Positions 1,653-61,617 of a DNA stretch of 64,000 bases are shown in pieces (the first letter of the stretch is position 1; each line of letters opens with the position of its first letter). The notes beneath the pieces are model-generated. The model was not told where the DNA came from, did no database searches, and was given only the letters and a program-made list of their open reading frames with translations. Made by a program: the position numbers and the translations under genes. Source of the stretch: an uncultured virus (IMG/VR IMGVR_UViG_2061766007_000545) (Duplodnaviria > Heunggongvirae > Uroviricota > Caudoviricetes); the IMG/VR virus record IMGVR_UViG_2061766007_000545, one strand, 5' to 3'.

Positions 1653-2995
1653 CTATAATAATCCTAAACTTCGAGCATTACACTCATAAAAATCATTAAA
1701 TAAAGGATAGTTATTTTCTTTCACAAAAGCAAACACTTCTCTAATTTCATCTTTAGTCATACTTTGACCACCGTAGCGCTTATTTGGTTTTTCATCAGAA
1801 TGACGAGCAAAGTCATAAAGAGTATCATCATTGATTTTTGTTAAATAAGTTTGCGTTGCTACTGTTTGAAAGCTATTATGATAGAAATTAAAGAGTCGTA
1901 TAACTTGTTCCCACATAGGATCTTTAAAATATCCCTTATCATATATAAGTGAAAAATTAAGGTGACAACTTCGCGAAATTATAATCTGCCTATAAATTTT
2001 TGGTAAAATATTTATCACAAAGTCATCTGCCTCGTATCCGTACATGGCTTTATATTCCATCTGCTTGTATGCTGCTCGATCTCGGCATTTTTCATACCAT
2101 TTATAAAATGATTCATCATCAATAAGTCCATTAAATTGTAGGGAAAAGAAAAGACTATCAGTGCGTACAGTTGACCAATTAACTAGGTCTTCTCCTTTAA
2201 AAAGCTGAATTGGAAACTTCATTCCTACGCGGGTTGCCCATCCGTCATTGCGCGCGAGCTTCAGAATTTTTTGAACCTCTTCAAAACTTCCCTCAATTGC
2301 GCCTAGGTCATAATCATGAAAGATTAGGTGGCGCGTATTACGTAGGTTTTTAAATTGCTTACCATACTCTGGCCATATCGTCTTTCCATCTAATGAAAGC
2401 CGACAATGCTCTGCATCTATAAGATTTTTATAGATTGTACTAGTTAAGCTATAAGTTCCNNNNNNNNNNCTCAAAATCTTTAGATAAAACTACTATTTCT
2501 CTCTTTTTTTTATAGTATGAAGAAAGTTTCATAATCTCAAGATTAAAGGGGACTAAGAGATAAGTNNNNNNNNNNCGGCCATATTGTCTTTCCATCTAAT
2601 GAAAGCCGACAGTGTTCTGCATCTATAAGATTTTTATAGATTGTACTAGTTAAGCTATAAGTTCCCGCTTCTTTCATTTGTTTTTCATATCGAGAATAGA
2701 TTGAGGTATCTGGTTTAGATATCTCAATCTCTCTCGGTAGTGGAGTATATATATTATTAGAAAAGGCAAGACCACCATATTCCACATTCTTGGTGGTCAT
2801 TAGCCCTTTCGGAAAAATTTGGTCGATATAATCTTTTCGATATATAAATTTCGTATAATATTCCGGTTCAAAATCTTTGGATAAAACTACTATTTCTCTC
2901 TTTTTTTTGTAATATGAAGAAAGTTTCATAATCTCAAGATTAAAGGGGACTAAGAGATAAGTAGAAAAGTCTCCATCCATTAATCCAATACTCAT
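1653..2995 (-). CDS. Hypothetical protein (~380 aa) broken by two N-gaps; N-terminus resembles phage radical-SAM-associated proteins
   Basis: ORFs 2543-2995 and 1653-2474 share GTYSLTSTIYKNLIDAEHCRLSLDGKTIWP, so they collapse into one gene; starts IGLMDGD..PFNLEIMKLSSYYK. Confidence 0.6.
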
Positions 2996-5900
2996 TATTC
3001 TTCCTCTCTTACTCGCGTTTCAATTAATCCATCATCTGATACATTAGAGATAATTTCAATTCGATGGAATGGAGTTGTTTTATATTTCTTTGCAATAAAA
3101 GCATCTCCTTCTCTAATACCAGTTATGACAAGTTTATTTCCACGTGAGAAACAAGATTTTTCTTTTACGTGCTTCTTCCCATCTGCGCCACGTTCACTAA
3201 GCTGGCGATCATATTGTTGGAAGACTCCGTAGACCTTAACTGTTACTACTCCACTAGTTGTAAGTAAAGTAACAAGTTTTTTTGCTTTATCTCTATCAAG
3301 AACCGTACCAATAATACGATGAAGTTTAAAGATAGGAACTAACTTACCCTTAATCGGAATTGTGCGCTCCACATCTGGTATCTCTGAAAGTCTACTAAAA
3401 TCAGAGAAATCATATCTTTCTATATCAACCTTACTTAACTCATGCTCATGAATATAACAGGAGATACTATCCATTTCCCATTTACTTACAGAGCCAAGAC
3501 AATACTTATTCCACATATCGCTTGTGAGGCGCGCATTCACTGCGTCAAGAAGTTCTTTATTATGCGCTTGGACATAAGGTCTTATCTTATCCATATGCGT
3601 TTGATACATCGTATCCCAATATGTTTGAGGTACTTTAAACATATTATCTTCCGGAACAAGTTTATCTATGTCAAAGTGCGCGCAATAAAAATCATATGCG
3701 TTCTCATCTATATTATAATATGTGCCATTCTTCTGCTTTTTTATATATTTATTAAAGTTAAATACACGACATTGTAAGTCATACTCTTCGGGAATCAACT
3801 TAAAGTCAATAAGCATTTTCATATTTTGAAGTGTAATACGCTTCTTTGTATCGCTTATCGAGTCAATATATTCGTGCATTACTTTAACTCTATCACCAAA
3901 ACCATCAAAAGCACCAGACTTTATCAAATTAACCATTTGAGGCTTATTTACTTTTACTTTTTCTAAGAAGTTATCTAGTGAAGTATAAGGACGATTAGCC
4001 ATAATTGTCTTAACGAGTTCTCCACCAATACGAGTTATACCAGACAATCCATAACGAATCGTATTATTTTGAATATCAGGAGAGAAAGTAAGCGTTGACT
4101 CATTAATATCTGGTGCCGAAACCTTTACACCAGTAGATACGATGCGTCCGATAGCAGAACTAATCTTACCATAGTTTGTTGCTTTAACTTTCTTTTTCTT
4201 TTTCCCATCTTTTGTCTTTACAACTTCAGCTGGAAAACCATCACAATCTTCTTCCTCATATCCTTCTTCATCTTCATCTTCTTCATCGTCTTCACCAAAT
4301 TCTTCCATTTCATTATAATAAGTTTCTTCTACTTTATCTTCTTCAATCGCTTCTTCGTCTTCTTCGTTTTCGTCACTGCCACCCGCATCACTTATAAGAC
4401 ACGCACAATTCCAAAAAAGAATCGGATATTTATATGCAAGATTCATTTCTTGAAGTGCAATCAAAGAATATGCTAAGGTATGCGCACGACAGAAGCTATA
4501 ACCTCTCTGTACTTTAAGAAGTACATCCCATACATAATGAACAAGGCGCATATCACAGCCTTTTTCTTTTGCGGTCTTATAGTAGGCTTCCTCACATTCT
4601 TCAAAAAGTTTACCTTGCTTTTTTGCAATAGCTTTACGACACTTATCTGCAAAGCTCAAATCGTTTCCGCCAAGTCTTTCATCTTGGAGCAGAGACATAA
4701 GTCCCTCTTGTGCTTCACATACACCATTCGTTATAGCATTATTATGACTTAACCAATCAATTTGCTCTTCTGATAAGCCATACTGACGCATTTCTGTATA
4801 CCACTCATTAATATTAGCTCGATAACGCGCCCACATATCAAGTGGTTGTTCTGCGCCTGGCTCAGATGCCATAAGACGAATAACTGAGTTTAATACAGCT
4901 AACTCCGCAACTGACTGCGGCTTTGCTAATGCGATTCCCGTTATACCAGACTGCTTTTCCATCTGAAAGAGAGAGTTAATTTCATGGTTAAGTACCATAT
5001 CCCACATCTTCGGATCTTCTCTTTCAATATTATAAATACCTACGATTGAGTTATAAGTTTCTCGTAATGTAGGTTTGCGCTCTGCATATCCATAATCACA
5101 AAGCAAATCAATACAGATATGAATCTTATCCATCGCTTCTACAGAAAGTAAGTCAATCTTAATAAGAGAAGCTGCTTCTGCATCGTGCAATTCAAAAGCC
5201 GTACATAATGTACCATCAGGTGCGCGCATTAAACCAGTCGACTCAGTGAAAGGTTCATCTACAAAGATAACACCACCCGCATGGAGACCGGAACCATTTA
5301 TTAATCCTTCAATCTTATGTGCAACTTGCCATAACTCAGGATAGTTCTCAGTCATTTCAAAAACAAATTGCTTAATCGGCGCCCAACCATGTTCCTCATC
5401 ACCATTCATACATTGATCGAGACTACGAAGCTGTCCACGATCAGCAGGAATAAGAGATGCCACATATTGTGCTATATCTATATCAATTCCAAGTCCACGA
5501 GCCGCAGTTAAAACCGCAGATTTGGACTTTTCAGTTCTAAATGTTGCTACATTCGCTACTCTATCTTCTCCATACACATTACGCAAATGAGCAAGAACCT
5601 GTGCGCGCTTTCCACCTTCAATATCGGTATCAATATCAAGAACTGACTCTCGCTTCGGGTTAAGAAAACGCCAAGGGAAACAAGGAGTTATTTCTCTTAA
5701 GTTGTTCATCTGAATAATGTCAAGACAATACAACAAAAGGAAACCACCACCAGATCCACGAGAAGGTCCAACAATCGTTCCTGCATTCCAACACTCATCT
5801 ATTGTCTTTTGAAGATTTAAGAAGTAAGCAGACCATTGCGCCTTATTTACAAGAGAAGATTCCCAAGTACGCTGAAGATTATCCTCTAATTCTGCATAAG

Positions 5901-14568: not shown

Positions 14569-16953
14569 TTAGCAGAGTGAGATTTTTATTATATTATCTG
14601 TCGGATTTAGCTTAATCGACTTATTTCCTTTCGCACCTCTTCCCAACTTCGGCACATCATCTGTCGTTAAACGAATGGTCGATCGGGTGGAGGCAATAAT
14701 TAAGTCAGATTTTTTAATAATCGGTACAAAATCTGCTGTCCAATCATTCAGTTCGAATTTTTGGATTTTTAATCCTTTTGTATTCTTTGACTGAATAGTA
14801 AATTCTGAATAATCCGTTTTCTTAAAATAGCCATTACCAGTTATAGAGATAATCTCAGTTACACCATTCGGGATGGCTCGCGCGCTAACAACGTAGTCTT
14901 CTTCGTTCAACTTAATCGCATGAACACCACGCGTTACTCGTCCAGTTTCACGAATATCATCAGAATTAATAAGTAAGAAATTACCTTGAGAGGTAAGAAT
15001 TCCTACTATTTCTTTTTCATTTACTGGAAGGACATTAGCAATTTCATCGCCACCATCTAAAGTTATAGCGCGATTACCGTTACCTCTCTTTATATTATAT
15101 TCAGAAGTTTCACTCTTTTTACCTATTCCTTTCTTTGTTAAGAATAGAAGATATTTCTTTCCATTCTTTTTGCTTAGAGAAGAAATTGTACAAATTTCCT
15201 CTGAATCTTTTATTGAGAAAAGGTTATATGGTGATACTACTTGATTTAGTACGATTTGATTTGCGGGAACGTGATAATAGTTTCCATTATTTGTAAAGAG
15301 AAGAAGTTCTTCATTCGTCTCAATATTTGCAGAAGCAATAACAAACTCATCTGCTGCAAGTTTAATCTTTGTACCTACACCACCGCGCTTCTGCGTATAA
15401 AGAGAAGATACCTCATATGCGAAAAGATTATTCTTATTCGTAAGCATTACTTGGAGAGATTTAGTCTCTACGACTTCATCATCATTCTTCGTATCAAGAT
15501 TAATAACTTTTGTACGGCGCTCATCACCAAACTTTTTAGATATTTCTTCCCAGCCATTAATAAGTTGCTGATTAAAAAGTTCGGTATCATTTAAAATTTT
15601 CTCAATTTTTCCCGCGCTTTTAATGCACTCTTCACGTTCATCTTCTAGCTTCTTTACTTCCAAATGCGATAAGCGCCCTAGCTTCATATCAAGAACGGCA
15701 TTAGCTTGGACTTCATCGAGTAAAAAGTTCTTCTGTAATGCGCTTGCTGCCGCTACTGTAGAAGCAGACTCCTTAATTGTCTTAATTACTTCGTCAATAT
15801 TAGCAAGACAAATAAGTAACCCATCAATAATATGGATTCGCGCTTTAATTTTATTTAAATCAAATTCAAACCCTCTACGATATACTTCTTTCTCATGGTC
15901 GATATGTGCCTGTAGCATTTCTTTCCAAGTAAATACCTTAGGAAAACGCCCTTTATCAAGCATTGTAAAATTAATTCCAAAATAAGATTGAAGTGAGGTA
16001 TTCTTATAAAGATAGCGCAAAACCTTATCAGGATTAGCTGTTTTAGATAAATAAATTTTTATCAATACCGTTTTTCCTGTTAAGTCTACAACTGGCTTTT
16101 CCCCATTCTTTGCATCGGGTCTATCAATACCTGGATTATCATCGCTATTTACTATTTCTTCCAATTGCTTACAAATAGTATTTGTATAAACAGAATAAGG
16201 AATTTCCGTAACTTCAAAGCATCTTTCTTTTGAGTTATATTCAACTACACTTCTTAACTTACAAGCGGCACCATATCCATCACGCATTGAATCCTTTACT
16301 TCTTTTTCATTATATAGAATCGCGCCCGTTGCAAAGTCTGGCGCGCAATAAATATCATCAAAAGAACAATCGGGATTTTTAAGTAAAGTAATAAGAGCGT
16401 TATTTAGTTCCTTTAGATTGTACTGAGGTACAGAAGAAGCCATACCTACTGCAATACCCATTGTGCCATTACAAATATTATAGAATCCTTTTGTAGGAAG
16501 AACAGCGGGGTATTGTTTTGTATTATCGTAGTTATCGCGCCATTCAGAAATAGTATCTTTATTGATGTCATCAAACATATGTCCCATCAATTTTGAAAGA
16601 CGGGACTCCGTATATCGCATAGCTGCCCAGTTGCCGGACTCAATAAGAGAACCCTTATTACCCTTTACTTCAACCAAAGGATAGCGCATCGCAAAAGGCT
16701 GACCAGCGCGCATTATAATTCCTTCGCAAGATGAGTCACCATGGATATAAAAGTCTGCCATCGCCATACCTACAGCATTAGCAGTCTTCTTATGCGGTTT
16801 ATCACTTGTAAGTTTATGTAGAAGCATTGAATAAAAAATCTGACGAGAAGAAGGTTTTAGTCCATCTCTTACATCAACCAGTGCGCGATTTTGAAGCACC
16901 GCACCTGCATATCCAATAAAACTATCTTCAATTACCGGTTTTAAATTACTCAT
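14569..16953 (-). CDS. gyrA: DNA gyrase/type IIA topoisomerase subunit A
   Basis: DVRDGLKP, HGDSS, AAMRYTE catalytic Tyr, GyrA-box-like QKRGGVG, beta-pinwheel repeats. Confidence 0.93.
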   Translation of the reverse strand: MSNLKPVIEDSFIGYAGAVLQNRALVDVRDGLKPSSRQIFYSMLLHKLTSDKPHKKTANAVGMAMADFYIHGDSSCEGIIMRAGQPFAMRYPLVEVKGNKGSLIESGNWAAMRYTESRLSKLMGHMFDDINKDTISEWRDNYDNTKQYPAVLPTKGFYNICNGTMGIAVGMASSVPQYNLKELNNALITLLKNPDCSFDDIYCAPDFATGAILYNEKEVKDSMRDGYGAACKLRSVVEYNSKERCFEVTEIPYSVYTNTICKQLEEIVNSDDNPGIDRPDAKNGEKPVVDLTGKTVLIKIYLSKTANPDKVLRYLYKNTSLQSYFGINFTMLDKGRFPKVFTWKEMLQAHIDHEKEVYRRGFEFDLNKIKARIHIIDGLLICLANIDEVIKTIKESASTVAAASALQKNFLLDEVQANAVLDMKLGRLSHLEVKKLEDEREECIKSAGKIEKILNDTELFNQQLINGWEEISKKFGDERRTKVINLDTKNDDEVVETKSLQVMLTNKNNLFAYEVSSLYTQKRGGVGTKIKLAADEFVIASANIETNEELLLFTNNGNYYHVPANQIVLNQVVSPYNLFSIKDSEEICTISSLSKKNGKKYLLFLTKKGIGKKSETSEYNIKRGNGNRAITLDGGDEIANVLPVNEKEIVGILTSQGNFLLINSDDIRETGRVTRGVHAIKLNEEDYVVSARAIPNGVTEIISITGNGYFKKTDYSEFTIQSKNTKGLKIQKFELNDWTADFVPIIKKSDLIIASTRSTIRLTTDDVPKLGRGAKGNKSIKLNPTDNIIKISLC

Positions 16954-16956
16954 TCT

Positions 16957-17337
16957 TTACTCCCTTACTGTACTAAAGTCAATATTATTCATAATAAAGT
17001 TTTTGCGAGGTTCAACCGCTTCGCCCATTAAATCATAAAGTAGTGTCATTGCTTCTTCAGAATATTCAAGTACTTCAAGACGCTGATATTGTTCGGTAAA
17101 CATTGAAGCATGTGCAGTTTCTTCGGGTAATTCACCTAAACCTTTCGCACGGGTAACTGTTCCCTTAATATCTTTTCTTACTTTATTAAATTCTTCATCA
17201 GTAAAGTAGTAAGACTCAGTTCCTTTATTATCTACGATATAAAGAGGTGAGCGCAACCAACATAAGCGTCCTTCTTTAATAAACTGAGGCGCGACGCGAT
17301 AAAGCAAAGCCATTATAAGTAAACCTATATGACTACC
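16957..17337 (-). CDS. gyrB: DNA gyrase subunit B, exon 2
   Basis: GSHI...SPLY...RAKGLGE; completes TOPRIM motif DADSD|GSHI. Confidence 0.92.
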   Translation of the reverse strand, partial: GSHIGLLIMALLYRVAPQFIKEGRLCWLRSPLYIVDNKGTESYYFTDEEFNKVRKDIKGTVTRAKGLGELPEETAHASMFTEQYQRLEVLEYSEEAMTLLYDLMGEAVEPRKNFIMNNIDFSTVRE

Positions 17338-18370
17338 CACGTTATTCCATTATTTCTAACGGCGCTGACTATATGTTACTCACAAATGTGAGAATACTCT
17401 TTCCACCTACGTACCAATAGTAAGTGTACTTCCCTTCCGGGGAATAGTCGATACAGGCTTCATTTATTAACCCAAACTTTTTGTTTCTTTTTGTATATTG
17501 GGAGGTCTTTATAGGTGCGGCCCCACAATATTTGTTGTAGTGTATTATAACTACATCTATCTTCAAAATCTTTATAAATGGTTCGTGCATCTTCATTTAC
17601 ATAACGCTCTCGTATTTGAAGAACCTCTTCATTTGAAAATTTCGCGTTATCAGAATTGGCACCATCAGTTGCATGATATTTATAGAAGTTTTTATTTTCT
17701 TCTGTATAAACTTCCATTTTAATATCTTTCCAAGTACTGCCATCCCATATAGAGGCAAAACCATAAAAACTTATTTTATTTTGAAACTTTTGATATACAT
17801 CACGTCGGCGCATATGTGCATCATAACATTCTCTGATGTAAGCTACATCTTCATTTGTTAAATTTGTGCGTCCATTATTTTCACCACGATTATTTCCTCC
17901 GCCTTCACTGCAATTATAACCAAAACCTTTATAAGTGTTATAAAAGGCAACCCAATATTTTTCTCGTTCATCAAGTTGTTCTAATGAACATTCTTCAATG
18001 ACTTGAAAATCAAAGGCGTCGGCGCCATACTTTCTAATAGCAATATCAATCGGTATATCAGTTTTTGTTTTATGTTCGGAAAATCTTCGTTCAATATTAT
18101 TACTTTGTCCGATATATGATTTTCCATTTTCTTTTTTTGTTATTTTATATATGCCTATCATCGCGGCACCTCCACAATTTTAGGCTTGGGTTAATTCTGA
18201 TTCCCACGGGATCTGCATGCCCACAAGGGGTTTAGCTTTTCTTACCACCATAACCTTCCGGTTTAGTTGCCCGTTAGCCTTCTAAATATAGTAGAATATG
18301 TAAACCATCACTACATTATTTTGAAGACCCCGCTGGTTAGCGGTAAAGTATTTACAGACAGTTTTTATTT
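17338..18370 (-). mobile_element. Group I intron in gyrB
   Basis: Exon 1 ends in U (CAGAU) and pairs with internal guide GUCUG including a U-G wobble; P7 pair GACUA/UAGUC (17445-17449, 17367-17371) in R- and S-like contexts; terminal G at 17338; removal restores frame. Confidence 0.9.
17460..18161 (-). CDS. Intron-encoded GIY-YIG homing endonuclease
   Basis: MIGIYKIT...SYIGQS..R...H, GYN motif; lies inside the intron. Confidence 0.92.
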   Translation of the reverse strand: MIGIYKITKKENGKSYIGQSNNIERRFSEHKTKTDIPIDIAIRKYGADAFDFQVIEECSLEQLDEREKYWVAFYNTYKGFGYNCSEGGGNNRGENNGRTNLTNEDVAYIRECYDAHMRRRDVYQKFQNKISFYGFASIWDGSTWKDIKMEVYTEENKNFYKYHATDGANSDNAKFSNEEVLQIRERYVNEDARTIYKDFEDRCSYNTLQQILWGRTYKDLPIYKKKQKVWVNK

Positions 18371-19867
18371 ATCTGAATCTGCATCGGTACAGATAGCCAC
18401 TTTTCCATAACGAAGCTTTTTACCATCGTATTTGTCTGGTACAATATTCATCGCACTAAGGAAAAGTTTTACCTCTTCGTTTTGAAAGGTTTTTTCATCA
18501 GGGTTAGATAGCGCATTAATAATTTTACCACGAATTGCAAGCAATCCATACTTCTTATAATCTCTCGCCTGCGCCATTCCTCCAAGAGCGGAATCTCCCT
18601 CTACGATAAGTAGAATTGAATCCTGTCCAAGAAATTCTGCGTCTTTAAGTTTATCAGAAGCAAAAACCTTTTTCTTTTGATTCTTTTCTACTTCTTTTGA
18701 AGCATTCATTATCTGTTCGCGCGCTTTAGCGGCCGCTGCATCAGCTTTAATCTCTTTCTCAAAAGTCTTTAGAATATTTTCAAATTCATTAGGGTATTTT
18801 TTCGTAAATTCCTCGAACATTTTCGTAGTTAAACGCTGACACAACCCGCGCAATTCAGGATTCGTAATCTTACTTTTTGTCTGTCCATCATAAATTGGAT
18901 CCTTAAGGTTTACCGAGCAAATATATTCAAGTCCTCTACGAAGAACATCCGCATCATATTCTCCCTTTGCTTTTACTTGCTTCTTTAGAAAGTTTGTGAT
19001 AGAAGTCTTAATGCCCGTAATTGGTGTGCCACCGTTTGGATTTTCTCCACCATTTGAGAAGAGATAAAAGTTTTCTTTACCAGATGCCGTCCACTGCATT
19101 ATAATCTCTACATCAATATCATTTTCCGAAGCTTTAATATAAAGAGGATGAGCATGGATAGGTTTACTAATTTTTTCTTTTGCAAAGTCGCGCAAACCTT
19201 CTTTACTCATATATTTATTTACTTTTTTCGTATTAGCATCAGTTACGATAAAAGTAATACCGGGATTAAAGTAGGAATATTCCTTCATCAACTCGCAGAT
19301 TTCATCGTAATCAAAGTTAATCGGTTCTGATTTAAAGACTTCCTGAGAGGGCTTATAGATTATATATGTACCCTGCGCCTGACCGTTAAGAGGCTTTTTC
19401 TGACACTCTGTCCATTTCGGTATACCTTTTTCAAACTCCATATACCATTCGGCGCCATCACGATAACTCGAAATCTTAAACCAATCAGAAGAACAGCAAG
19501 TTGCGGCTGAACCAGTACCATTAAGTCCACGGCTCTTTCCACCATACGCGTTATCATTAAATTTTGCACCGGAATGATTTTCAGTAAGAAGGTTAATCAT
19601 TACTTCTTTTGAAAAGCTATTCTGTCCGTGTGGCATTCCACGACCATAGTCACGACAACTTGCCCAATCTTTTCCAACTACTATTTCTATTTTTGTAGCA
19701 TCTTTACAAACCAAACCCTCATCAGTTGCATTATTGACTAACTCAAGAAGTCCAGCAATAACACCGGTATGGTCTGCACTACCCAAATAGATACCAATAC
19801 GAGAGCGTACGCCTTCTCGGAAAGTCAACTGTTGAACCGATGAGGCATCATAAATTTCTTGTGCCAT
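18371..19867 (-). CDS. gyrB: DNA gyrase subunit B, exon 1
   Basis: GHKL ATPase ELVNNATDE, DYGRGMP, GLNGTG; VEGDSA, IRGKIIN, TDADSD then stop. Confidence 0.93.
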
Positions 19868-19894
19868 TTATTCCTCTCCTTTCAATTTTCTTCT

Positions 19895-19923
19895 ATTATA
19901 AAAAATTTTTTAGAAAAGTTCAA
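19895..19923 (-). promoter_or_regulatory. Sigma-A-type promoter (gyrB)
   Basis: TTGAAC-17-TATAAT. Confidence 0.72.
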
Positions 19924-20639
19924 ATTTTCTTTTTCCATCCGTCATATTTTGTCCAAAGTTTATTATGGACACAGTTTTTATCCCAAGCCTTAAAGGGAGT
20001 AGTATGAATTATAGCTCCCATGCCTGGTTCACCACCAGTAAATCGGCAGTTATTAAAGCGATTTGAAATATACTTTACCCTACCTTTGCACGCAATATTT
20101 AATGCGTCTTGGTCAGGATAAGGAAGCTGTCGAGTATTTATAATCTCTAAAACTTCATCATCCATTCCCTCGTCTCTTAATGCCTTTAGATTCAAAAGAC
20201 AAACTCCAGTATTGAAGTATGGATCTGAGTATTCCCGAGTTACATGACGATATGCGCCGCCTCTATTTTTATCCTCTGGAACTACACAAAGTAAATTCCC
20301 TTCAAAGTCAGTATTCCAAAGTTCAGATATATCTCTAATAAAAAGAGTATCTATATCCACATAAAGAACCTTATCTTCTAAGAGATATTTTGACGCATAA
20401 CAGCGCACAAATGACATACGACTAAAGACAGTATTATAATTAGGACTTTCTTTTGAAAGATAGGGCGTCATTTTATCTAAATTTACTACTCTGACGCGTG
20501 GATCTAATTCATAAGGAAATTCATCATCCTCAATAAATAAATAGACGCGCTCTACATTTTGATTTGTCTGAAATAGACTCTCCAATGTTGCTGGCGCGAC
20601 ATCATATAAATTTCTTGTGATACAAAACATTAAAGTCAT
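19920..20639 (-). CDS. Glycosyltransferase family 8
   Basis: KVLYVDIDT, YFNTGV, DQDALN; start moved to ATG 20639 downstream of promoter. Confidence 0.88.
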   Translation of the reverse strand: MTLMFCITRNLYDVAPATLESLFQTNQNVERVYLFIEDDEFPYELDPRVRVVNLDKMTPYLSKESPNYNTVFSRMSFVRCYASKYLLEDKVLYVDIDTLFIRDISELWNTDFEGNLLCVVPEDKNRGGAYRHVTREYSDPYFNTGVCLLNLKALRDEGMDDEVLEIINTRQLPYPDQDALNIACKGRVKYISNRFNNCRFTGGEPGMGAIIHTTPFKAWDKNCVHNKLWTKYDGWKKKI

Positions 20640-20670
20640 AGAACTGTCTCCTATTCCATTTTCTATATAA

Positions 20671-20699
20671 ATTATACCATAATTTCGATAAAAAGTCAA
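20671..20699 (-). promoter_or_regulatory. Sigma-A-type promoter (GT8)
   Basis: TTGACT-17-TATAAT. Confidence 0.8.
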
Positions 20700-20728
20700 A
20701 TTTAGAAAGTAAAGGAGTAGACTTATGT

Positions 20729-21790
20729 CTACTCCCAATCTTTAACTTTTGTACCCCTAAAAGAATTACGCTTAGGTGGAACTCGTGTCCATACCAAGAG
20801 GTCGCGCGCACGAGTAGCCGCAACATAACTAACGCACTTTTCTTCAAGATTATAGAAACGGGCGCCAATTACAACTACTTTATTTGCTTCCAAGCCTTTT
20901 GCGGCATGGATAGTAAGAACTTTTACTGTAGGCTCTTTAAGCTTTTGGTTTAGCTCTTTTGTATTAAGCTGAGAGCGTTTAAAGGTATCGTAAGGTACTC
21001 CGTACTTACTTAGCGCGCGTGCCATTACATCTATCTCATCATTTGTACGACTTAAAACAAACCACTCTCCATAGTTACCGTAGGATTTAATTGTTTCTGC
21101 GATTCGTTCAGGATTATATTCACGCTCAATTACTCGACCATCTGTTTCTCTCATAGGAATTGATTCATCTCTATATCCAAGTCCGGCAAGACGAATTATT
21201 CCTTTTGCATAATCGAGAATTTTACGACCATTACGATAGTTTTCATCTAATTCGTAAAGTTTTACATCATCGCGTTTTGAAAGGTCAATAAGTATATCGG
21301 GGCGCGCGTCTAAGAATCCGTAAATGGATTGTCTCCAGTCTCCCACCAGGAACCAGTTCTTCGGATTCACATACTCAAGCAAAACTTTAAACTGTTCTTC
21401 TGTTGAGTCTTGCGCTTCATCAAGCAAAAGATAATCTACTTCTTGAATACACTCACGATGGTCAGATATTCTTTGAAAGAGTTTATCAAATTCTTCGTTT
21501 TCGAGAATATCGCTTGTACTAATACCGCCGCACATTAGAAGAAAATTTACATAGGAGTGAATTGTGCCAATAAAAATTCCTTGTGCATTTGTGAGGCGGT
21601 CATAAATATTTTCTGCTGCTGCATTTGTGAAAGTTAAAGCAACAATTCTTTTTGGATCTACCCCTTCATTAATTAAGCGCTGAATGCGCTCCACGAGAAC
21701 TGCGCTCTTCCCAGAGGCAGCAGAGGCGCAAACAACAATATGGGGTTCTTTTGCGTCTACTATTTTTTGTTGGTTTCTACTTAAATTCAT
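20729..21790 (-). CDS. Compact UvrD/Rep-like SF1 helicase
   Basis: ASAASGKS, LTFTNAAA, LDEAQD, VGDWRQSIYGF, ENYR, TIHAAKGLE, YVAATRA. Confidence 0.9.
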   Translation of the reverse strand: MNLSRNQQKIVDAKEPHIVVCASAASGKSAVLVERIQRLINEGVDPKRIVALTFTNAAAENIYDRLTNAQGIFIGTIHSYVNFLLMCGGISTSDILENEEFDKLFQRISDHRECIQEVDYLLLDEAQDSTEEQFKVLLEYVNPKNWFLVGDWRQSIYGFLDARPDILIDLSKRDDVKLYELDENYRNGRKILDYAKGIIRLAGLGYRDESIPMRETDGRVIEREYNPERIAETIKSYGNYGEWFVLSRTNDEIDVMARALSKYGVPYDTFKRSQLNTKELNQKLKEPTVKVLTIHAAKGLEANKVVVIGARFYNLEEKCVSYVAATRARDLLVWTRVPPKRNSFRGTKVKDWE

Positions 21791-21836
21791 TTTTCTCTCC
21801 GACCTGTTCAGATTAGCCTGCTCAGGATTTACTAGT

Positions 21837-22493
21837 TTATTGTCTTTGAGGTCCTTTTTCATATTTTCTCTTCCAAATATAATGATATGCAGTTTTCATT
21901 TCACCTCTACAACAGGACCTAATATTAGATGAACTCCATCCATTAATTCTTCCCGCCTCTGAAGCAGAACTATATTCTCTTATAAAGTTCCCATCTAAAT
22001 CAAATTGTAGAACTGGATCTGCATTTTTCTTTTTACTAAATTCACTAACCCTTTTGGCAATATCTTCATCGGTTATTAAGCCAGCACCTTTAAGTCTATT
22101 TAATACTAAATTTGTGCGCCCTATTCCCATTTTTCTTTCTATTTCTTTTCCTGTATATCCTTCTTGCCAAAGAGCGTACATGGTTTCGATATCATATTTT
22201 ATCATTCCTTCTCCGCCTAAACTTACATTATATCCATTTTCTTCAGTAAGACTTTTATATTTTTGTATATAGCAAATTTCTTTTTCATTTATCAGTTCTG
22301 AGGGAATATTATTCTCTATTACTTCTATAGAAAAGTTTTCCAATCCATATTTTCGCATAGCTAAATATAGTGGATAATTTACAGTATAAATATGGCGTTT
22401 ATGCTCTTCCCACCTTTCTTGGAGAGACCGCTCAGTTTTTCCTACATATTTTTTATTATTAATTTTATTGGTTATTAAGTAAATTAATCCCAT
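21837..22493 (-). CDS. Free-standing GIY-YIG homing endonuclease with NUMOD1-like C-terminus
   Basis: LIYLITN..KYVGKT, GYN, VLQFDLDGNFIREYSSASEA..IRSCCRG. Confidence 0.88.
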   Translation of the reverse strand: MGLIYLITNKINNKKYVGKTERSLQERWEEHKRHIYTVNYPLYLAMRKYGLENFSIEVIENNIPSELINEKEICYIQKYKSLTEENGYNVSLGGEGMIKYDIETMYALWQEGYTGKEIERKMGIGRTNLVLNRLKGAGLITDEDIAKRVSEFSKKKNADPVLQFDLDGNFIREYSSASEAGRINGWSSSNIRSCCRGEMKTAYHYIWKRKYEKGPQRQ

Positions 22494-22498
22494 AATTA

Positions 22499-23521
22499 CT
22501 ACCCCTGTCTTTCGTTAAGTCCGTATTCTTTCGAGCCGTAGAAGTTAATCCAATATTTTTCTCTTTCTCCAAGTTTATCCTTTGGTACTTCTTCAAGCAC
22601 TTCAAAGGTAAATTGGTCAACTCCATCTTTTTCCATAGTAGTATGGAGCATTGAATGAGCGATAGTGCCAACACCAAATGCGGTTTTAATGTGCTGTCCC
22701 CATCTATCACGAATATTAGTTGATTTACCGACATAGATTTCTTTAGTTTTAAGTCGAGTTATCTTATAGATACCAGATGGTGCAGAACCATTAAGTACAC
22801 GCTTAATCATTTCTTGCGCGGGTTTTGCTATGTAAGTATCATAGATAATCTTATCAAGAAAAGAACGATTAGAAAGACGAGGCGCAATAGAACGTAGGAC
22901 TTCAATATCTTGTTTAGCAGTATCACTAAGGCAAACTCGATAGAAGTCTTGTTTTTCTTCGATAGCGCGCTGACGAAGTATTTCTTGGTTGATGACTTCG
23001 CGCTTCTCTTTAAAGTCATTAATTATGAAGTCTAATTCAGTAATTTCTATCCGCTTCTTCTGTGCAAGTTCCTCGTTAGTGGCGAGGTACCCTTCGAGTT
23101 CTTTCCGTGCGTCTTCTTTTATTGATTCGAGAAGACGAGCAGTAGTATTACGGTAGTCATTTACTTCGTTGTCGAAATGACGATGGATTTCTTCATTATT
23201 TTTCTCCGTAGAAGTTCTTACGTATTCTGCGCCCGCTCGCTCCTGCGCGTCTCGCATCCGCTGGAATTCCTCAGTGGACTTCTTAGCATCATCTCGCGCA
23301 GAAGTAAGCCGCGCGCCTTGTGCATAGACCTCTGCTTCCAAATCCGAAATTTTCTTCTGTGCTTCCGCATCTAATTCAGCAAAACGACTTTCTAATTCTA
23401 TTCTATATTTATCTACTATTTTATCTCTAAGTTTATTTTCTTCTTTTTTTAATTTACTTCTATATACTATATCTATTATTAATATTACTATTATAATACT
23501 ACTTATAATATATATATACAT
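22499..23521 (-). CDS. Membrane-anchored coiled-coil protein with C-terminal GIY-YIG domain
   Basis: Hydrophobic N-terminus, charged helical middle, SGIYKIT..IYVGKS..RW..H..EREKYWI. Confidence 0.8.
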   Translation of the reverse strand: MYIYIISSIIIVILIIDIVYRSKLKKEENKLRDKIVDKYRIELESRFAELDAEAQKKISDLEAEVYAQGARLTSARDDAKKSTEEFQRMRDAQERAGAEYVRTSTEKNNEEIHRHFDNEVNDYRNTTARLLESIKEDARKELEGYLATNEELAQKKRIEITELDFIINDFKEKREVINQEILRQRAIEEKQDFYRVCLSDTAKQDIEVLRSIAPRLSNRSFLDKIIYDTYIAKPAQEMIKRVLNGSAPSGIYKITRLKTKEIYVGKSTNIRDRWGQHIKTAFGVGTIAHSMLHTTMEKDGVDQFTFEVLEEVPKDKLGEREKYWINFYGSKEYGLNERQG

Positions 23522-23548
23522 AAAATTTACCTCCCGTTTTATAAGTAG

Positions 23549-23577
23549 ATTATACCACAAAACGAGAGGTAAGTCAA
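23549..23577 (-). promoter_or_regulatory. Sigma-A-type promoter
   Basis: TTGACT-17-TATAAT. Confidence 0.78.
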
Positions 23578-56719: not shown

Positions 56720-57289
56720 ATGTATAAAGGTTTATATGATAAATTTAAAGATTGGTTTCATAATGATAGAGGTAATGTATGGTTTTATTCCGATCCTCAC
56801 TTTAGTGATGAAGAAATGATTTATTTGCGCGCTAACTATATTGGCGATTTAGAGCAAGTAAAACGAATTAACTCTAAAGTAGGTAAATATGATACGATTA
56901 TCTTTCTTGGTGATATTGGAAACCCTGAATACATTTCTAATATTCGTGGATATAAAGTACTTATAAAAGGAAACCACGATAGCGGAAATGCAAATTATGA
57001 AAAGTACTTTGATGAAATTTACGAAGGCGCGCTTTGTGTGTCAGAAAAAATTATACTCAGTCACGAACCAATTTACTTTCCTTTTGCCCTAAATATTCAT
57101 GGACATGACCATTCTAATTGGGAATTCCAAGACGAAATGCATTGGAATGTTTGTGCAGAGTATATTAACTATACTCCTATTAGTTTAAATGATATAATTA
57201 AGTCTGGTAGGTTAAAGAAAATTGATAGTATCCATAGAGTTACGATAGATAAAGCCACGGAAAGAAAGGGAGAGAAAAATGGTGTATAA
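56720..57289 (+). CDS. Calcineurin-like metallophosphoesterase
   Basis: SDPHF, LGDI, KGNHD, LSHEP, HGHDH. Confidence 0.9.
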   Translation: MYKGLYDKFKDWFHNDRGNVWFYSDPHFSDEEMIYLRANYIGDLEQVKRINSKVGKYDTIIFLGDIGNPEYISNIRGYKVLIKGNHDSGNANYEKYFDEIYEGALCVSEKIILSHEPIYFPFALNIHGHDHSNWEFQDEMHWNVCAEYINYTPISLNDIIKSGRLKKIDSIHRVTIDKATERKGEKNGV

Positions 57290-58025: not shown

Positions 58026-58086
58026 TTGAACAAAAACCTCCTAAAGGTTTTTACTAGTAATGTGCTTGCACTACCCTAGGTTTTTT

Positions 58087-58281
58087 GTGAAGGTTGGCGG
58101 AGTATGTAGGTGTACGCAGTATAAATTCATAGTAATTGGATTCTAAAAAGAATTGGGCGCCACGTGGGTGGCTCGGAGAAAGTTAGGACTTCTCTCAATC
58201 AACTCTACGGGACTATGATACCTCTCTATAATGAATACCCGAACCAAGAGGGAGTCGATTAACTCCAACTCTTGCCTTCAC
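58087..58281 (+). ncRNA. Candidate ~195-nt structured ncRNA (unclassified)
   Basis: Ends pair (GTGAAGGT/GCCTTCAC), internal TCATAGT/ACTATGA and GAGAAAGT/ACTTCTC; no ORF. Confidence 0.45.
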
Positions 58282-58284
58282 TAT

Positions 58285-58356
58285 GCACCCATCGTCGAAT
58301 AGGCAAGACTACTGACTTGTAATCAGTGTATGGCGGTTCGAGTCCGTCTGGGTGCT
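58285..58356 (+). tRNA. tRNA-Thr(TGT)
   Basis: ACTGA-CT-TGT-AA-TCAGT. Confidence 0.9.
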
Positions 58357-58359
58357 CTC

Positions 58360-59165
58360 CCACCACTCGATACTAGTAGGAAAACCGAAGCTTTATTTCG
58401 AGTTAATGTGACTCTAGTGGAATCTTAGGAAAGTCGAGGAACTCGAGGGATATACCCTCCAAGAAGGGTTGAGCCTTCAGCACAGGGGTTTAAGGTCGAA
58501 GTGACAATAGTCATATGGTAAGAACCAGGCATGTAAATGTGCGTTAGTGCGAAAAACCTTAAAGAACCTAACACGCCTCTCAACGATGCGGACCACGTTA
58601 GGTCTGGGAATACTGAAAAACGAGAGCAGTGAGCACACACAGGAATCTCACGCCGTACTAGTCTCCGGTACACGACTATGAGGTGGTAATAGTCCCTCGT
58701 CACGATGTGTAGGTATTCCCGTAATTTGTCGCCTTCGTCTAATTGGCTAGGACAGCGCCCTTTCACGGCGCAAACGTGGGTTCAAACCCCATAGGCGGTA
58801 TATTGGGTAGAAAGATAAACTACCCCTCCCTTCCGAGGGAAAAGGTCCCTGACATCTTTAAGAGTCGACACTTGAAAGGTGCATACCAAACTTCTTATAA
58901 TGGGCAAGCGATAGTCCCATATCGTTAACGCTTCTAACACGGAAGTAAAAATAGGTAGTTGCTCGTAAGGCAAGCTTCGACAGAAAGGCTGACATGAGGA
59001 CTCCGCGGATGTCGTGCCGCGGTATAGAAATGGTTGGACAGTTCTACTAGGGATGACAACTAAAGTAGCAGTATGGAGCATTCTATGTAATGCGGTTGAA
59101 ATGCTGAAGTAGTTTGCGGTGGTTTTGGGGCGACATTTATCCACTTGTCAAAAAGAAAGAGCGTT
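58360..59165 (+). ncRNA. Large ornate ncRNA candidate (one ~800-nt GOLLD-like RNA with embedded tRNA-Glu, or two ~360-nt RNAs)
   Basis: GC-richer, no credible CDS, more than 15 hairpins plus several loop-loop complementarities; family assignment unverified. Confidence 0.6.
58728..58800 (+). tRNA. tRNA-Glu(TTC)
   Basis: GCGCC-CT-TTC-AC-GGCGC. Confidence 0.92.
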
Positions 59166-59170
59166 CATCA

Positions 59171-59244
59171 CGAGGGATACGTCAATTGGCTAGACGGCGT
59201 GCGTTGGATGCACGAGGTTGCGGGTTCGAATCCTGCTCCTTCGA
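59171..59244 (+). tRNA. tRNA-Pro(TGG)
   Basis: CGTGC-GT-TGG-AT-GCACG. Confidence 0.9.
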
Positions 59245-59253
59245 CTCGAAAAT

Positions 59254-60112: not shown

Positions 60113-60184
60113 GCGTCCGTGGCAGACAAGTAATGCACACGACTTTTAATCGTGGATATGTGGGGGCAGTACCCATCGGGCGCA
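60113..60184 (+). tRNA. tRNA-Lys(TTT), non-canonical T-loop
   Basis: CACGA-CT-TTT-AA-TCGTG; T-arm GTGGG-GGCAGTA-CCCAT. Confidence 0.8.
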
Positions 60185-60426: not shown

Positions 60427-60455
60427 TTGATTTTTTCTTAAATTTTTGGTATAAT
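60427..60455 (+). promoter_or_regulatory. Sigma-A-type promoter (ROOL-like RNA)
   Basis: TTGATT-17-TATAAT. Confidence 0.8.
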
Positions 60456-60480: not shown

Positions 60481-61085
60481 CTTTGAAAACTTTATAAAAA
60501 GCGTGTTGCAACCTTGTGAAGAGCGTCTAACCAACGCTGCAAGGGCGCCTCGGAACAGCTGAGGAGTCGTCAGAAGGATACTTCAAAACGGCTCAACTTT
60601 CACAGAAATCGAAAGACGAAGTGAGAAGGAGTAAAACTCCAACAGAGAAGAGGTGGCGCAAGGGCAATATGATTATAAGACACGATTCCGGTTTTCCCAA
60701 CAATAGACGCCTCGGTGAGGAATAACCCTATAGACCACATCCGCAAGATGTGAGCCAATGTAGGGAATGCAAAAGCAATGGGAATGCCTCGACACTACGT
60801 CAGAAATGGCGTAGAACCGGTTTGCGGTACGAGTAGCCTAAGAGGCGTAATATTTCTAAAATAGTTGACATTAATTATTGGGCAAATGTTATTAATCTGA
60901 ATGGTTGGTGAAAGTTAGGGGTACATGAATCCCCTTCGAGACAGTGGTTCCGAAAGGAACTGGGGTAAGAAGTTATACGGCGACGGCTGTATGGCTCAGA
61001 CTTATCTCCTCGGTGGTCGAATAATAAAGGTTATTGAGGGAGTATAGCGAAGGCTAGCAATATACTTTTTATAAAGTTTTTAAAG
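60481..61085 (+). ncRNA. Large structured ncRNA, probable ROOL RNA
   Basis: ~605 nt with no CDS, 29-nt terminal complementary arms, many short-loop hairpins, own sigma-A promoter, tRNA neighbourhood; family assigned from recalled size/context/motifs, not from a search. Confidence 0.72.
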
Positions 61086-61550: not shown

Positions 61551-61617
61551 AGTCTTATGGTCTAATTGGACAAGGACGCGCAAAAGCGAGGTAGGGGTTC
61601 GATTCCCTTTAAGACAA
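61551..61617 (+). ncRNA. tRNA-like RNA lacking a normal anticodon arm
   Basis: Acceptor GTCTTA/TAAGAC, D arm, T arm AGGGG-TTCGATT-CCCTT; anticodon arm reduced to CGC-AAAA-GCG. Confidence 0.75.

Follow-up and report, generated by a model that had tools for sequence, protein, structure and literature searches.

A 64,000-nt stretch of DNA from an uncultured virus (IMG/VR record IMGVR_UViG_2061766007_000545), referred to here as the window, was found to carry an orphan copy of the abiF RNA motif in a non-coding part of its tRNA gene array. The copy is a 37-nt hairpin at 58567..58603 on the + strand, within a region (58,360 to 59,165) which lies on both sides of a tRNA-Glu gene. Bacterial hairpins of this type are RNA antitoxins that silence AbiF (Abi_2), the HEPN RNase toxin of an abortive infection system. 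A first-pass annotation, made from the letters alone, had described the region as about 800 nt of pseudoknot-rich RNA wrapped around tRNA-Glu, either a divergent GOLLD RNA or something new. No new giant RNA is present; the region consists of two independent spacers of a same-strand tRNA array, designated spacer A (upstream of tRNA-Glu) and spacer B (downstream), and the abiF hairpin in spacer A, which that reading had missed, is the only part to which a name can be given. Our preferred reading, which we hold with a probability of roughly 0.6, is that the hairpin, located in one of two independent spacers, is an antitoxin decoy which the phage makes to counter abortive infection by AbiF.

An abiF hairpin without its toxin recurs in phage tRNA arrays

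Using cmscan, the hairpin was matched to Rfam family RF03085 over the full model length, with a score of 34.7 bits (E 3e-4 in a 1.1-kb search). It has a fully paired 6-bp outer stem (CCUAAC/GUUAGG), a 3-bp inner stem, the loop CUCUCAACGAU and an asymmetric 6-nt bulge, GACCAC, on the 3' side, and the 15-base core made up of inner stem and loop, GCCUCUCAACGAUGC, is identical to the RF03085 consensus. This canonical fold is the minimum free energy (MFE) structure of the isolated hairpin, as it also is for a cognate bacterial copy. The first-pass annotation had drawn a hairpin GGACC/GGTCT at this place; both arms are present, but they mis-pair bases that are paired otherwise in the covariation-supported fold of the abiF hairpin.

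At least 117 loci in IMG/VR contain the exact 15-mer, and all viral counts given below refer to the matches listed. Thirteen loci with no convincing stem were dropped by eye as probable chance matches (L031, L035, L043, L044, L049, L066, L078, L095, L104, L108, L109, L112 and L118), leaving 104 credible loci. Alignment of 77 distinct viral hairpins with the window copy (78 hairpins in total) showed pairing in 89.6% of cells and 131 both-side changes, compared with 43 in shuffled alignments, and none of 500 shuffles reached 131. When the 3' partner was slid by 1-3 columns as a control, just 20-48 both-side changes were counted. Between the window and a related 1380-nt metagenome contig, L146, a U-A pair of the outer stem is replaced by C-G, which is a compensatory change. 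The stem of the hairpin is under selection, and its evolution has preserved the structure. A model built from the 78-hairpin alignment recovers one copy in the window at 53.3 bits, a circular score because the window is itself a row of the model. L146 carries the window-type hairpin (54.2 bits) and, directly upstream of it within a 53-nt insert, a second abiF-type hairpin of the same architecture with a variant loop (25.3 bits, E 1.8e-5). At this position about 60 additional letters are also present in two other relatives (X5 record 7 and X17 record 5), and a search of IMG/VR for the variant loop of the extra L146 hairpin gave 0 matches.

Bacterial copies were located with a 25-base pattern from the window hairpin (58572-58596, covering inner stem, loop and bulge, with one K), which was present in at least 120 species-representative genomes. 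Nearly all of the matching genomes listed are gut or rumen Lachnospiraceae, Ruminococcus, Oscillospiraceae, other Clostridia, or Prevotella/Segatella/Bacteroidales. Downstream frames were tested at the 71 of 101 loci that had long flanks, the 30 with only 300-nt flanks being left out, and an Abi_2 gene (PF07751) was found 3' of the hairpin in 40 of these 71 bacterial loci (among the matches listed). The cognate layout is TATAAT, 7-9 nt, the hairpin, a T-rich tail UCUUUUAAUUU, an AGGAG box and abiF itself. The window copy, compared from AGAACC to GGUCU, is the same as the Lachnospiraceae-type copy of L153 except for one base pair altered on both sides, and this match points to a host of the Lachnospiraceae/Clostridia type. 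The window copy has no promoter of its own, no T-rich tail and no toxin gene; it is followed by tRNA-Glu and further tRNAs, and no Abi_2 was detected among the open reading frames (ORFs) tested in the 64-kb window.

Most copies in viral contigs are likewise orphans. A locus was considered testable if an open frame (stop to stop) of at least 60 codons started no more than 450 nt downstream, as was the case for 96 of the 117, and Abi_2 lay 3' of the hairpin in two of these, L033 and L051. Other viral neighbours of the hairpin were terminase subunits, HNH endonucleases, integrases, a porin, a ferritin and phosphoesterases, and the proteins of 390-410 aa found 3' of one hairpin lineage had no PADLOC, Pfam or PDB sequence match. 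In L096 (301-466) the hairpin is followed by a 37-aa AbiF stump, which shares 41% identity with the N-terminus of AbiF from L033 (E 2e-8), and then by an unrelated gene, so that by its sequence this contig looks like a toxin-deleted intermediate. It was also observed that L030 and L097 each carry two abiF-like hairpins in tandem, Abi_2 not being detected in either, and that many orphan viral hairpins are situated in the packaging/cos region, a short way 5' of a terminase or HNH endonuclease gene (L026, L040, L060, L017, L002, L009, L034, L042, L066, L072, L073 and L092).

Transfer RNA genes were present within the available flank at 35 of the 117 viral loci. When the 104 credible loci were grouped into 51 lineages, same-strand tRNAs were found in 12 of the 51, a tRNA was located no more than 15 nt from the hairpin in eight lineages, and opposite-strand tRNAs were seen at none of the loci. 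Typically a tRNA-Arg begins 4-9 nt after the hairpin, or a tRNA ends 7 nt ahead of it. In Synechococcus phage S-SRM01 (abiF match of 49.3 bits) a tRNA starts 5 nt downstream, and the pattern was also found in Mycobacterium phages LittleE and Redno2 and in Aeromonas phage PZL-Ah8. The abiF match in Synechococcus phage S-CREM1 has already been annotated, without an anti-defence reading (PMC9964418). Together with S-SRM01, the orphan phage copies L038 (42.4 bits), L029 (39.6) and L080 (37.9) score above the 37-bit cut-off of RF03085. Eighteen Bacillus phage records (phiNIT1, Grass, SBSphiJ5-7, Goe24, the BSP series and others) carry a divergent copy with the loop CUCUUAACAAU, scoring 22.4 bits with our abiF hairpin model R1; in phiNIT1 (L150) it is located at 2501-2545, in a 1.2-kb GC-rich non-coding gap (2337-3574) of the tRNA cluster. 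The same gap of phiNIT1, a cultured lytic phage, contains a skipping-rope RNA (RF02924, 46.8 bits) that ends 3 nt before tRNA-Gln. As a separate observation, the phage tRNA arrays of L037, L048, L054, L077, L135 and L136 include a tRNA with anticodon CTA, called tRNA-Pyl by ARAGORN; such tRNAs are probably amber suppressors, a hint of stop-codon recoding in those gut phages. A literature search, which did not extend to a 2025 Cell paper on AbiF and Cas13 or to the supplement of the 2017 motif paper, found no paper on orphan abiF motifs in phage tRNA arrays or on a counter-defence role for them.

A possible antitoxin decoy against AbiF

Since the hairpin is a near-exact copy of a bacterial AbiF antitoxin, the phage probably makes a decoy. 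According to published work the abiF-motif RNA binds and neutralises AbiF, in trans as well (PMC12373285), and two further papers, citing a 2025 Cell paper, describe it as blocking the HEPN active site, inhibition being due to the bulge nucleotides (PMC12737573, PMC13064643). We infer that the window hairpin would be transcribed and processed, would bind AbiF and would act against this defence. It would be transcribed as part of the abundant tRNA precursor, and would then either be released or remain in a stable fragment. The phage hairpin would supplement the antitoxin pool of the host, and AbiF would stay inhibited as host transcription collapses in infection, which is the principle of pseudo-ToxI applied to AbiF. 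Where the hairpin adjoins a tRNA, as in other phages, it would be freed by RNase P or by 3'-end processing of that tRNA.

Several points weigh against this decoy reading. The score of the window copy is below the curated RF03085 gathering cut-off of 37 bits, the shortfall being located in the A-U-rich outer stem. Conservation of the loop in the viral set is built in, since the exact 15 bases were used to collect it, and in X5 the aligned loop contains insertions (CCG after 58581 and T after 58584), so that the canonical loop is not retained by every relative. The comparison of 2/96 viral with 40/71 bacterial loci followed by Abi_2 mixes hairpin subfamilies, and the window's own subfamily is mixed in viral contigs, Abi_2 being present in L033 and L051 and absent from L029, L055 and L096. 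The window hairpin does not abut a tRNA and is 3-4 nt from other structured modules, which makes its release by tRNA-processing enzymes less obvious than in other phages. Contigs from the RNA libraries of two studies cover parts of spacer A (X16 record 3, 58457-58671; X17 record 5, 58403-58724), and these are weak evidence of transcription because they show neither strand nor ends and may derive from DNA carry-over. High sequence identity is no proof of constraint, as blocks 95% identical to L146 are found next to a tRNA-Asn gene that is 70% identical. AbiF is presumed in the host of this phage, and the window represents 64 kb of a probably larger phage in which a distant abiF gene may exist.

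The alternatives all received lower scores than the decoy reading because of the points that count against them. It is unlikely, although there is some evidence in its favour, that the hairpin came in by illegitimate recombination as an inert piece of a host AbiF locus, with spacers that are filler or that supply hairpins for the processing or stability of the tRNA precursor. The mosaic block structure of the region, the decay of an AbiF locus within a viral contig (L096), the unremarkable folding energy, the score under the Rfam cut-off and the altered loop of X5 all speak for this reading. Against it stand the compensatory stem change between the window and L146, the independent recurrence in 12 of 51 lineages, where the hairpin is in every case on the same strand as the tRNAs and often directly adjoins one, and the retention of two such hairpins in tandem by relatives. 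Contigs from RNA libraries, moreover, fall on spacer A and not on spacer B, the latter being partly uncovered in DNA runs too.

We also consider it quite improbable that the hairpin is the working antitoxin of an AbiF encoded by the phage itself beyond the window, as part of a phage-borne exclusion system. AbiF systems do occur on prophages (PMC12373285), and in two viral contigs, L033 and L051, Abi_2 comes after the hairpin. However, cognate hairpins have their own promoter and directly precede abiF, neither of which applies to the window copy, and the window ORFs tested did not include an Abi_2 gene. The phage furthermore looks strictly lytic, as replication genes are present and no integrase was found among the ORFs tested.

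Two independent spacers of a mosaic tRNA array

The window comes from an uncultured low-GC rumen phage, and DNA near-identical to it was found in bovine gut metagenome runs. Its genes include those for a DNA polymerase, topoisomerase II subunits, RecJ, a DnaB-type helicase, a ligase, PhoH, a Clp-type head protease, tail proteins and several GIY-YIG endonucleases. Thirty tRNA genes, all on the + strand, lie between about 54.9 and 61.6 kb (28 identified by ARAGORN and two more by Rfam), and the region studied here has a GC content of 0.47-0.49 versus about 0.32 in the coding parts. The features of the region and its surroundings are as follows.

58285..58357, + strand: tRNA-Thr(tgt), upstream border of spacer A (ARAGORN; Rfam tRNA 59.2 bits; 97.3% identity to L146)
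58358-58726, + strand: spacer A, 369 nt, the gap 5' of tRNA-Glu
58358..58415, + strand: 5' part of spacer A, variable (64% identity to L146, which has an 8-nt deletion here)
58416..58726, + strand: conserved non-coding block, a mosaic of small structured modules (95.2% identity to L146 apart from the 53-nt insert in L146; MFE z-score -0.11)
58489..58563, + strand: multi-hairpin module A2, with closing helix UUUAAGGU/ACCUUAAA enclosing small hairpins
58567..58603, + strand: orphan abiF-motif hairpin, 37 nt (RF03085)
58606..58720, + strand: predicted 3' domain closed by GGGAAUAC/GUAUUCCC, containing hairpin GUGAG/CUCAC (58629-58633 with 58647-58651)
58727..58801, + strand: tRNA-Glu(ttc) (ARAGORN, Rfam), an insertion/deletion cassette together with spacer B
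58802..59170, + strand: spacer B, 369 nt, non-coding, with no recognisable element
58872..58901, + strand: promoter-like TTGAAA-18-TATAAT (11/12 consensus letters; a consensus match only)
59171..59245, + strand: tRNA-Pro(tgg), downstream border (ARAGORN, Rfam)
60113-60184 and 61551-61617, + strand: two tRNA-model matches missed by ARAGORN (Rfam, 43.4 and 37.6 bits)
60488-61075, + strand: full-length ROOL RNA (RF03087) inside the tRNA array (Rfam 292 bits; MFE z-score -6.17)

The independence of the two spacers was apparent from relatives of the window. In L146, tRNA-Asn is followed by a homologue of the gap that precedes tRNA-Thr, then by tRNA-Thr itself and a spacer A homologue, which leads straight into tRNA-Pro and tRNA-Met; the 444 nt that make up tRNA-Glu and spacer B are missing. 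The same junction of spacer A with tRNA-Pro is found in X17 record 5, a 420-nt contig from a size-fractionated RNA library, the loose end of which continues after 58724 into an L146-type tRNA-Pro. X5 record 7, a 20.8-kb DNA contig of another relative, retains tRNA-Glu and spacer B, with 58811-58916 replaced by 107 other letters. From these three arrangements, tRNA-Glu and spacer B form a cassette separate from spacer A. Identity to L146 proceeds in blocks, being 94.9% over 58026-58125, 70% over tRNA-Asn, 97.3% over tRNA-Thr, 64% over 58358-58415 and 95.2% over 58416-58726, and on this alignment it looks like recombinational mosaicism. A search by way of the neighbouring 118-aa ORF revealed no relatives in IMG/VR. 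Searching with the phosphoesterase and PhoH genes gave 18 loci (37-63% protein identity) whose arrays are non-syntenic and have no DNA similarity to the spacers; model R1 gave just one weak match on these loci, in L133 (16.5 bits, E 0.085). A pattern anchored on tRNA-Glu gave 0 matches in IMG/VR and 0 in JGI metagenomes.

The modules of spacer A that accompany the abiF hairpin are, as far as these alignments go, conserved and partly covarying. The core of A2 (58516-58559) recurs in other flanks in rumen samples, at 100% identity in X17 record 6 and about 90% in X6 record 14. In these two records the letters of the helix flanking A2 are changed yet still pair (UUUGUG..AGGU / ACCU..CACAAA), and the first inner hairpin is either substituted by another hairpin or missing. 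The differences between L146 and the window in A2 sit in a hairpin loop. Patterns for A2 had 0 matches in IMG/VR and 13 in metagenomes, 12 of them chance and one real (L146), and none of 49 sources searched with a covariance model of A2 yielded another copy. The helix GGGAAUAC/GUAUUCCC of the 3' domain is invariant between the window and L146. Within this domain the hairpin at 58629-58651 has one compensatory pair in the X5 relative (58630 U>A with 58650 A>U), and the interior from 58630 to 58694 is hypervariable in X5.

It could be proposed that the whole block at 58416-58726 (311 nt) constitutes a single new structured RNA with the abiF hairpin as one of its domains; it might, for instance, be a scaffold which presents or stabilises the decoy. 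The rise in identity to L146 from 64% immediately upstream to 95.2% over the block, the single 420-nt RNA-library contig that spans it, and some covariation in A2 and in hairpin 58629-58651 speak for a unit of this kind. We nevertheless regard it as quite improbable, as the MFE z-score of the block is -0.11, A2 and the abiF hairpin are each found alone elsewhere (X6 records 14 and 15, X17 record 6), an insert of 53-60 nt is tolerated between them, and the long-range helix of the 3' domain shows no variation and is a predicted pairing only.

Spacer B has no signal above chance. A search of Rfam at E<=10 gave nothing meaningful, the sole match being v-snoRNA-1 at 18.6 bits, and no RNA contigs fell on spacer B in two RNA runs. 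Parts of it were also uncovered in some DNA runs, and the missing RNA contigs are given no evidential weight. It is probably a plain spacer or leader travelling with tRNA-Glu. The promoter-like sequence at 58872-58901 raises the guess that the 3' part of spacer B may be a leader for tRNA-Pro and tRNA-Met.

The observations of the first-pass annotation were partly confirmed and its interpretation was partly supported. All 15 pairs of hairpin arms that it listed were found at their positions, and its statement that there is no credible coding sequence agrees with the ORFs of the region, since those on the minus strand (58782-59144 and 58425-58766) and the small ones on the plus strand matched neither PHROGs nor Pfam. 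The neighbourhood of phage genes and tRNAs is as described, although it is not specific to GOLLD. For the 5' half, the idea of RNA-level elements is supported, these being conserved and represented among RNA-library contigs; in the 3' half the signal is no better than chance. Taken as a set, the hairpins do not go beyond chance. MFE z-scores against dinucleotide shuffles were +0.44 for spacer A (58358-58726), -0.10 for spacer B (58802-59170) and -0.11 for 58416-58726. The ROOL RNA that the window also contains served as positive control and gave -6.17, with 0 of 100 shuffles as good. Ornate folding of the region is not supported by these values. Both arms of the proposed hairpin GAGGG/CCCTC are present, but in L146 a G>A change at 58447 breaks the pairing GAGGG/CCCUC and is uncompensated. 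The claimed pseudoknot and kissing loops are complementarities of 6-7 bases, for which no comparative support was found among the relatives; the one substitution observed there (59013 C>T, in two relatives) leaves a G-U pair and carries no information on the pairing. Nor did any observation support the suggested ribozymes.

Kinship with GOLLD was not borne out, as cmscan against Rfam gave no match to RF01998 at the gathering score, nor at E<=10 when stretches of 7.5 kb and 1.1 kb were searched with permissive filters, and at E<=10 nothing beyond abiF and noise was found on the spacers. No similarity was found between spacer A and spacer B, or between either and the rest of the window, and the direct fusion of spacer A to tRNA-Pro in L146 and X17 record 5 contradicts a single RNA of about 800 nt around tRNA-Glu. 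A divergent GOLLD or other large ornate RNA embedding tRNA-Glu is therefore very improbable, since the non-coding, GC-raised setting in a phage tRNA array, with many hairpin arms and a true large RNA (ROOL) nearby, is outweighed by the missing GOLLD match, the z-scores, the unrelated halves, the relatives lacking tRNA-Glu and the 3' half, the replacement of 58811-58916 in X5 and the disrupted helix in L146.

Further observations were made on the array and its surroundings. Ahead of the ROOL RNA, which lies 1.3 kb downstream of the region studied, there is a promoter-like sequence, TTGATT-17-TATAAT, carrying a TG extension (60427-60455), and the PhoH-linked relative L133 likewise carries ROOL (305.8 bits). 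The tRNA-model matches at 60113-60184 and 61551-61617 may be unusual or degenerate tRNAs. A gene for a calcineurin-like metallophosphoesterase (Pfam Metallophos, phrog_547) is situated within the array at 56720-57289 on the + strand. In L029, L078 and L171, the last a bacterial locus, orphan abiF hairpins likewise have a Metallophos gene on their 3' side, and in L159 and L170 RlaP RNA-repair genes lie 3' of such hairpins; such neighbours may be an RNA-end-healing partner of a set formed by tRNAs and decoy. The gap between tRNA-Asn and tRNA-Thr (58026-58284) is likewise mosaic and structured, with 58126-58175 missing from L146, and its two-tier hairpin at about 58244-58275 keeps its pairing through both-side changes (CAAGAG/CUCUUG to AAAAG/CUUUU, and GGAGU/ACUCC to GCGG/CCGC). 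Elsewhere in the window, three GIY-YIG ORFs (17460-18161, 21837-22493 and 22499-23560) lie amid topoisomerase II and helicase genes on the - strand (14569-23560), and a gyrB-like gene is seemingly split (18365-19867 and 16957-17340) around one of them.

Wider meaning and comparison with known systems

We tentatively suggest, at somewhat less than even odds, that phages widely use orphan abiF hairpins, placed on the tRNA strand of their arrays, as an RNA counter-defence to AbiF/HEPN abortive infection. The hairpins would be made as by-products of tRNA precursor processing in phages ranging from cyanophages to Bacillus and rumen phages. If so, phage tRNA arrays would be multi-part anti-defence loci in which antitoxin decoys are combined with spare tRNAs, large RNAs of the ROOL kind and possibly phosphoesterases that heal RNA ends, and a possible reason for the long non-coding stretches in phage tRNA clusters would be at hand. 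The type of hairpin would also be a marker for predicting the host and the defences that a phage faces; the copy in the window is of the Lachnospiraceae/Clostridia type. RNA-based anti-defence is rare to our knowledge, the cases known to us being pseudo-ToxI, RNA anti-CRISPRs and the hairpin of phage sk1. AbiF is the proposed ancestor of Cas13, which gives it special interest. The decoy idea would be simple to test, as natural tRNA-array copies occur in cultured phages (Bacillus phages of the phiNIT1/SBSphiJ type and the cyanophages S-SRM01 and S-CREM1).

Compared with known systems, the spacers share with GOLLD (RF01998) and ROOL (RF03087) a phage and tRNA-array neighbourhood, but differ in that they match neither model, fold no more stably than shuffled sequence and do not form one continuous unit. 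The window hairpin has the architecture of the abiF RNA motif, its inner stem, loop and bulge being identical over 25 contiguous bases to copies linked to Abi_2, and differs in lacking an adjacent Abi_2 gene, a promoter and a T-tract and in being embedded between modules in a tRNA array. RCd22, the AbiF antitoxin of C. difficile, carries two motifs in one RNA (PMC12373285), and relatives of the window carry two in tandem. A hairpin of lactococcal phage sk1 is described as inhibiting AbiF and thus protecting the phage (PMC13064643, PMC12184496). This cos-site hairpin resembles the one proposed here in being a phage RNA hairpin that inhibits AbiF; it is reportedly unlike the AbiF noncoding RNA, whereas the window hairpin is a bona fide abiF motif. 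Pectobacterium phage TE reportedly escapes ToxIN by means of a pseudo-antitoxin RNA (PMC3475682), and the pseudo-ToxI of this phage is likewise a phage-encoded look-alike of a type III antitoxin without its toxin, for which the action is the same as the one proposed here. It differs in that its target is ToxN and not the HEPN toxin AbiF, that it is made up of repeat units and not a single hairpin, and that its function is reported as experimentally demonstrated, whereas for the window hairpin we infer it. In concept, the decoy proposed here is a variant of RNA antitoxin mimicry as already known.

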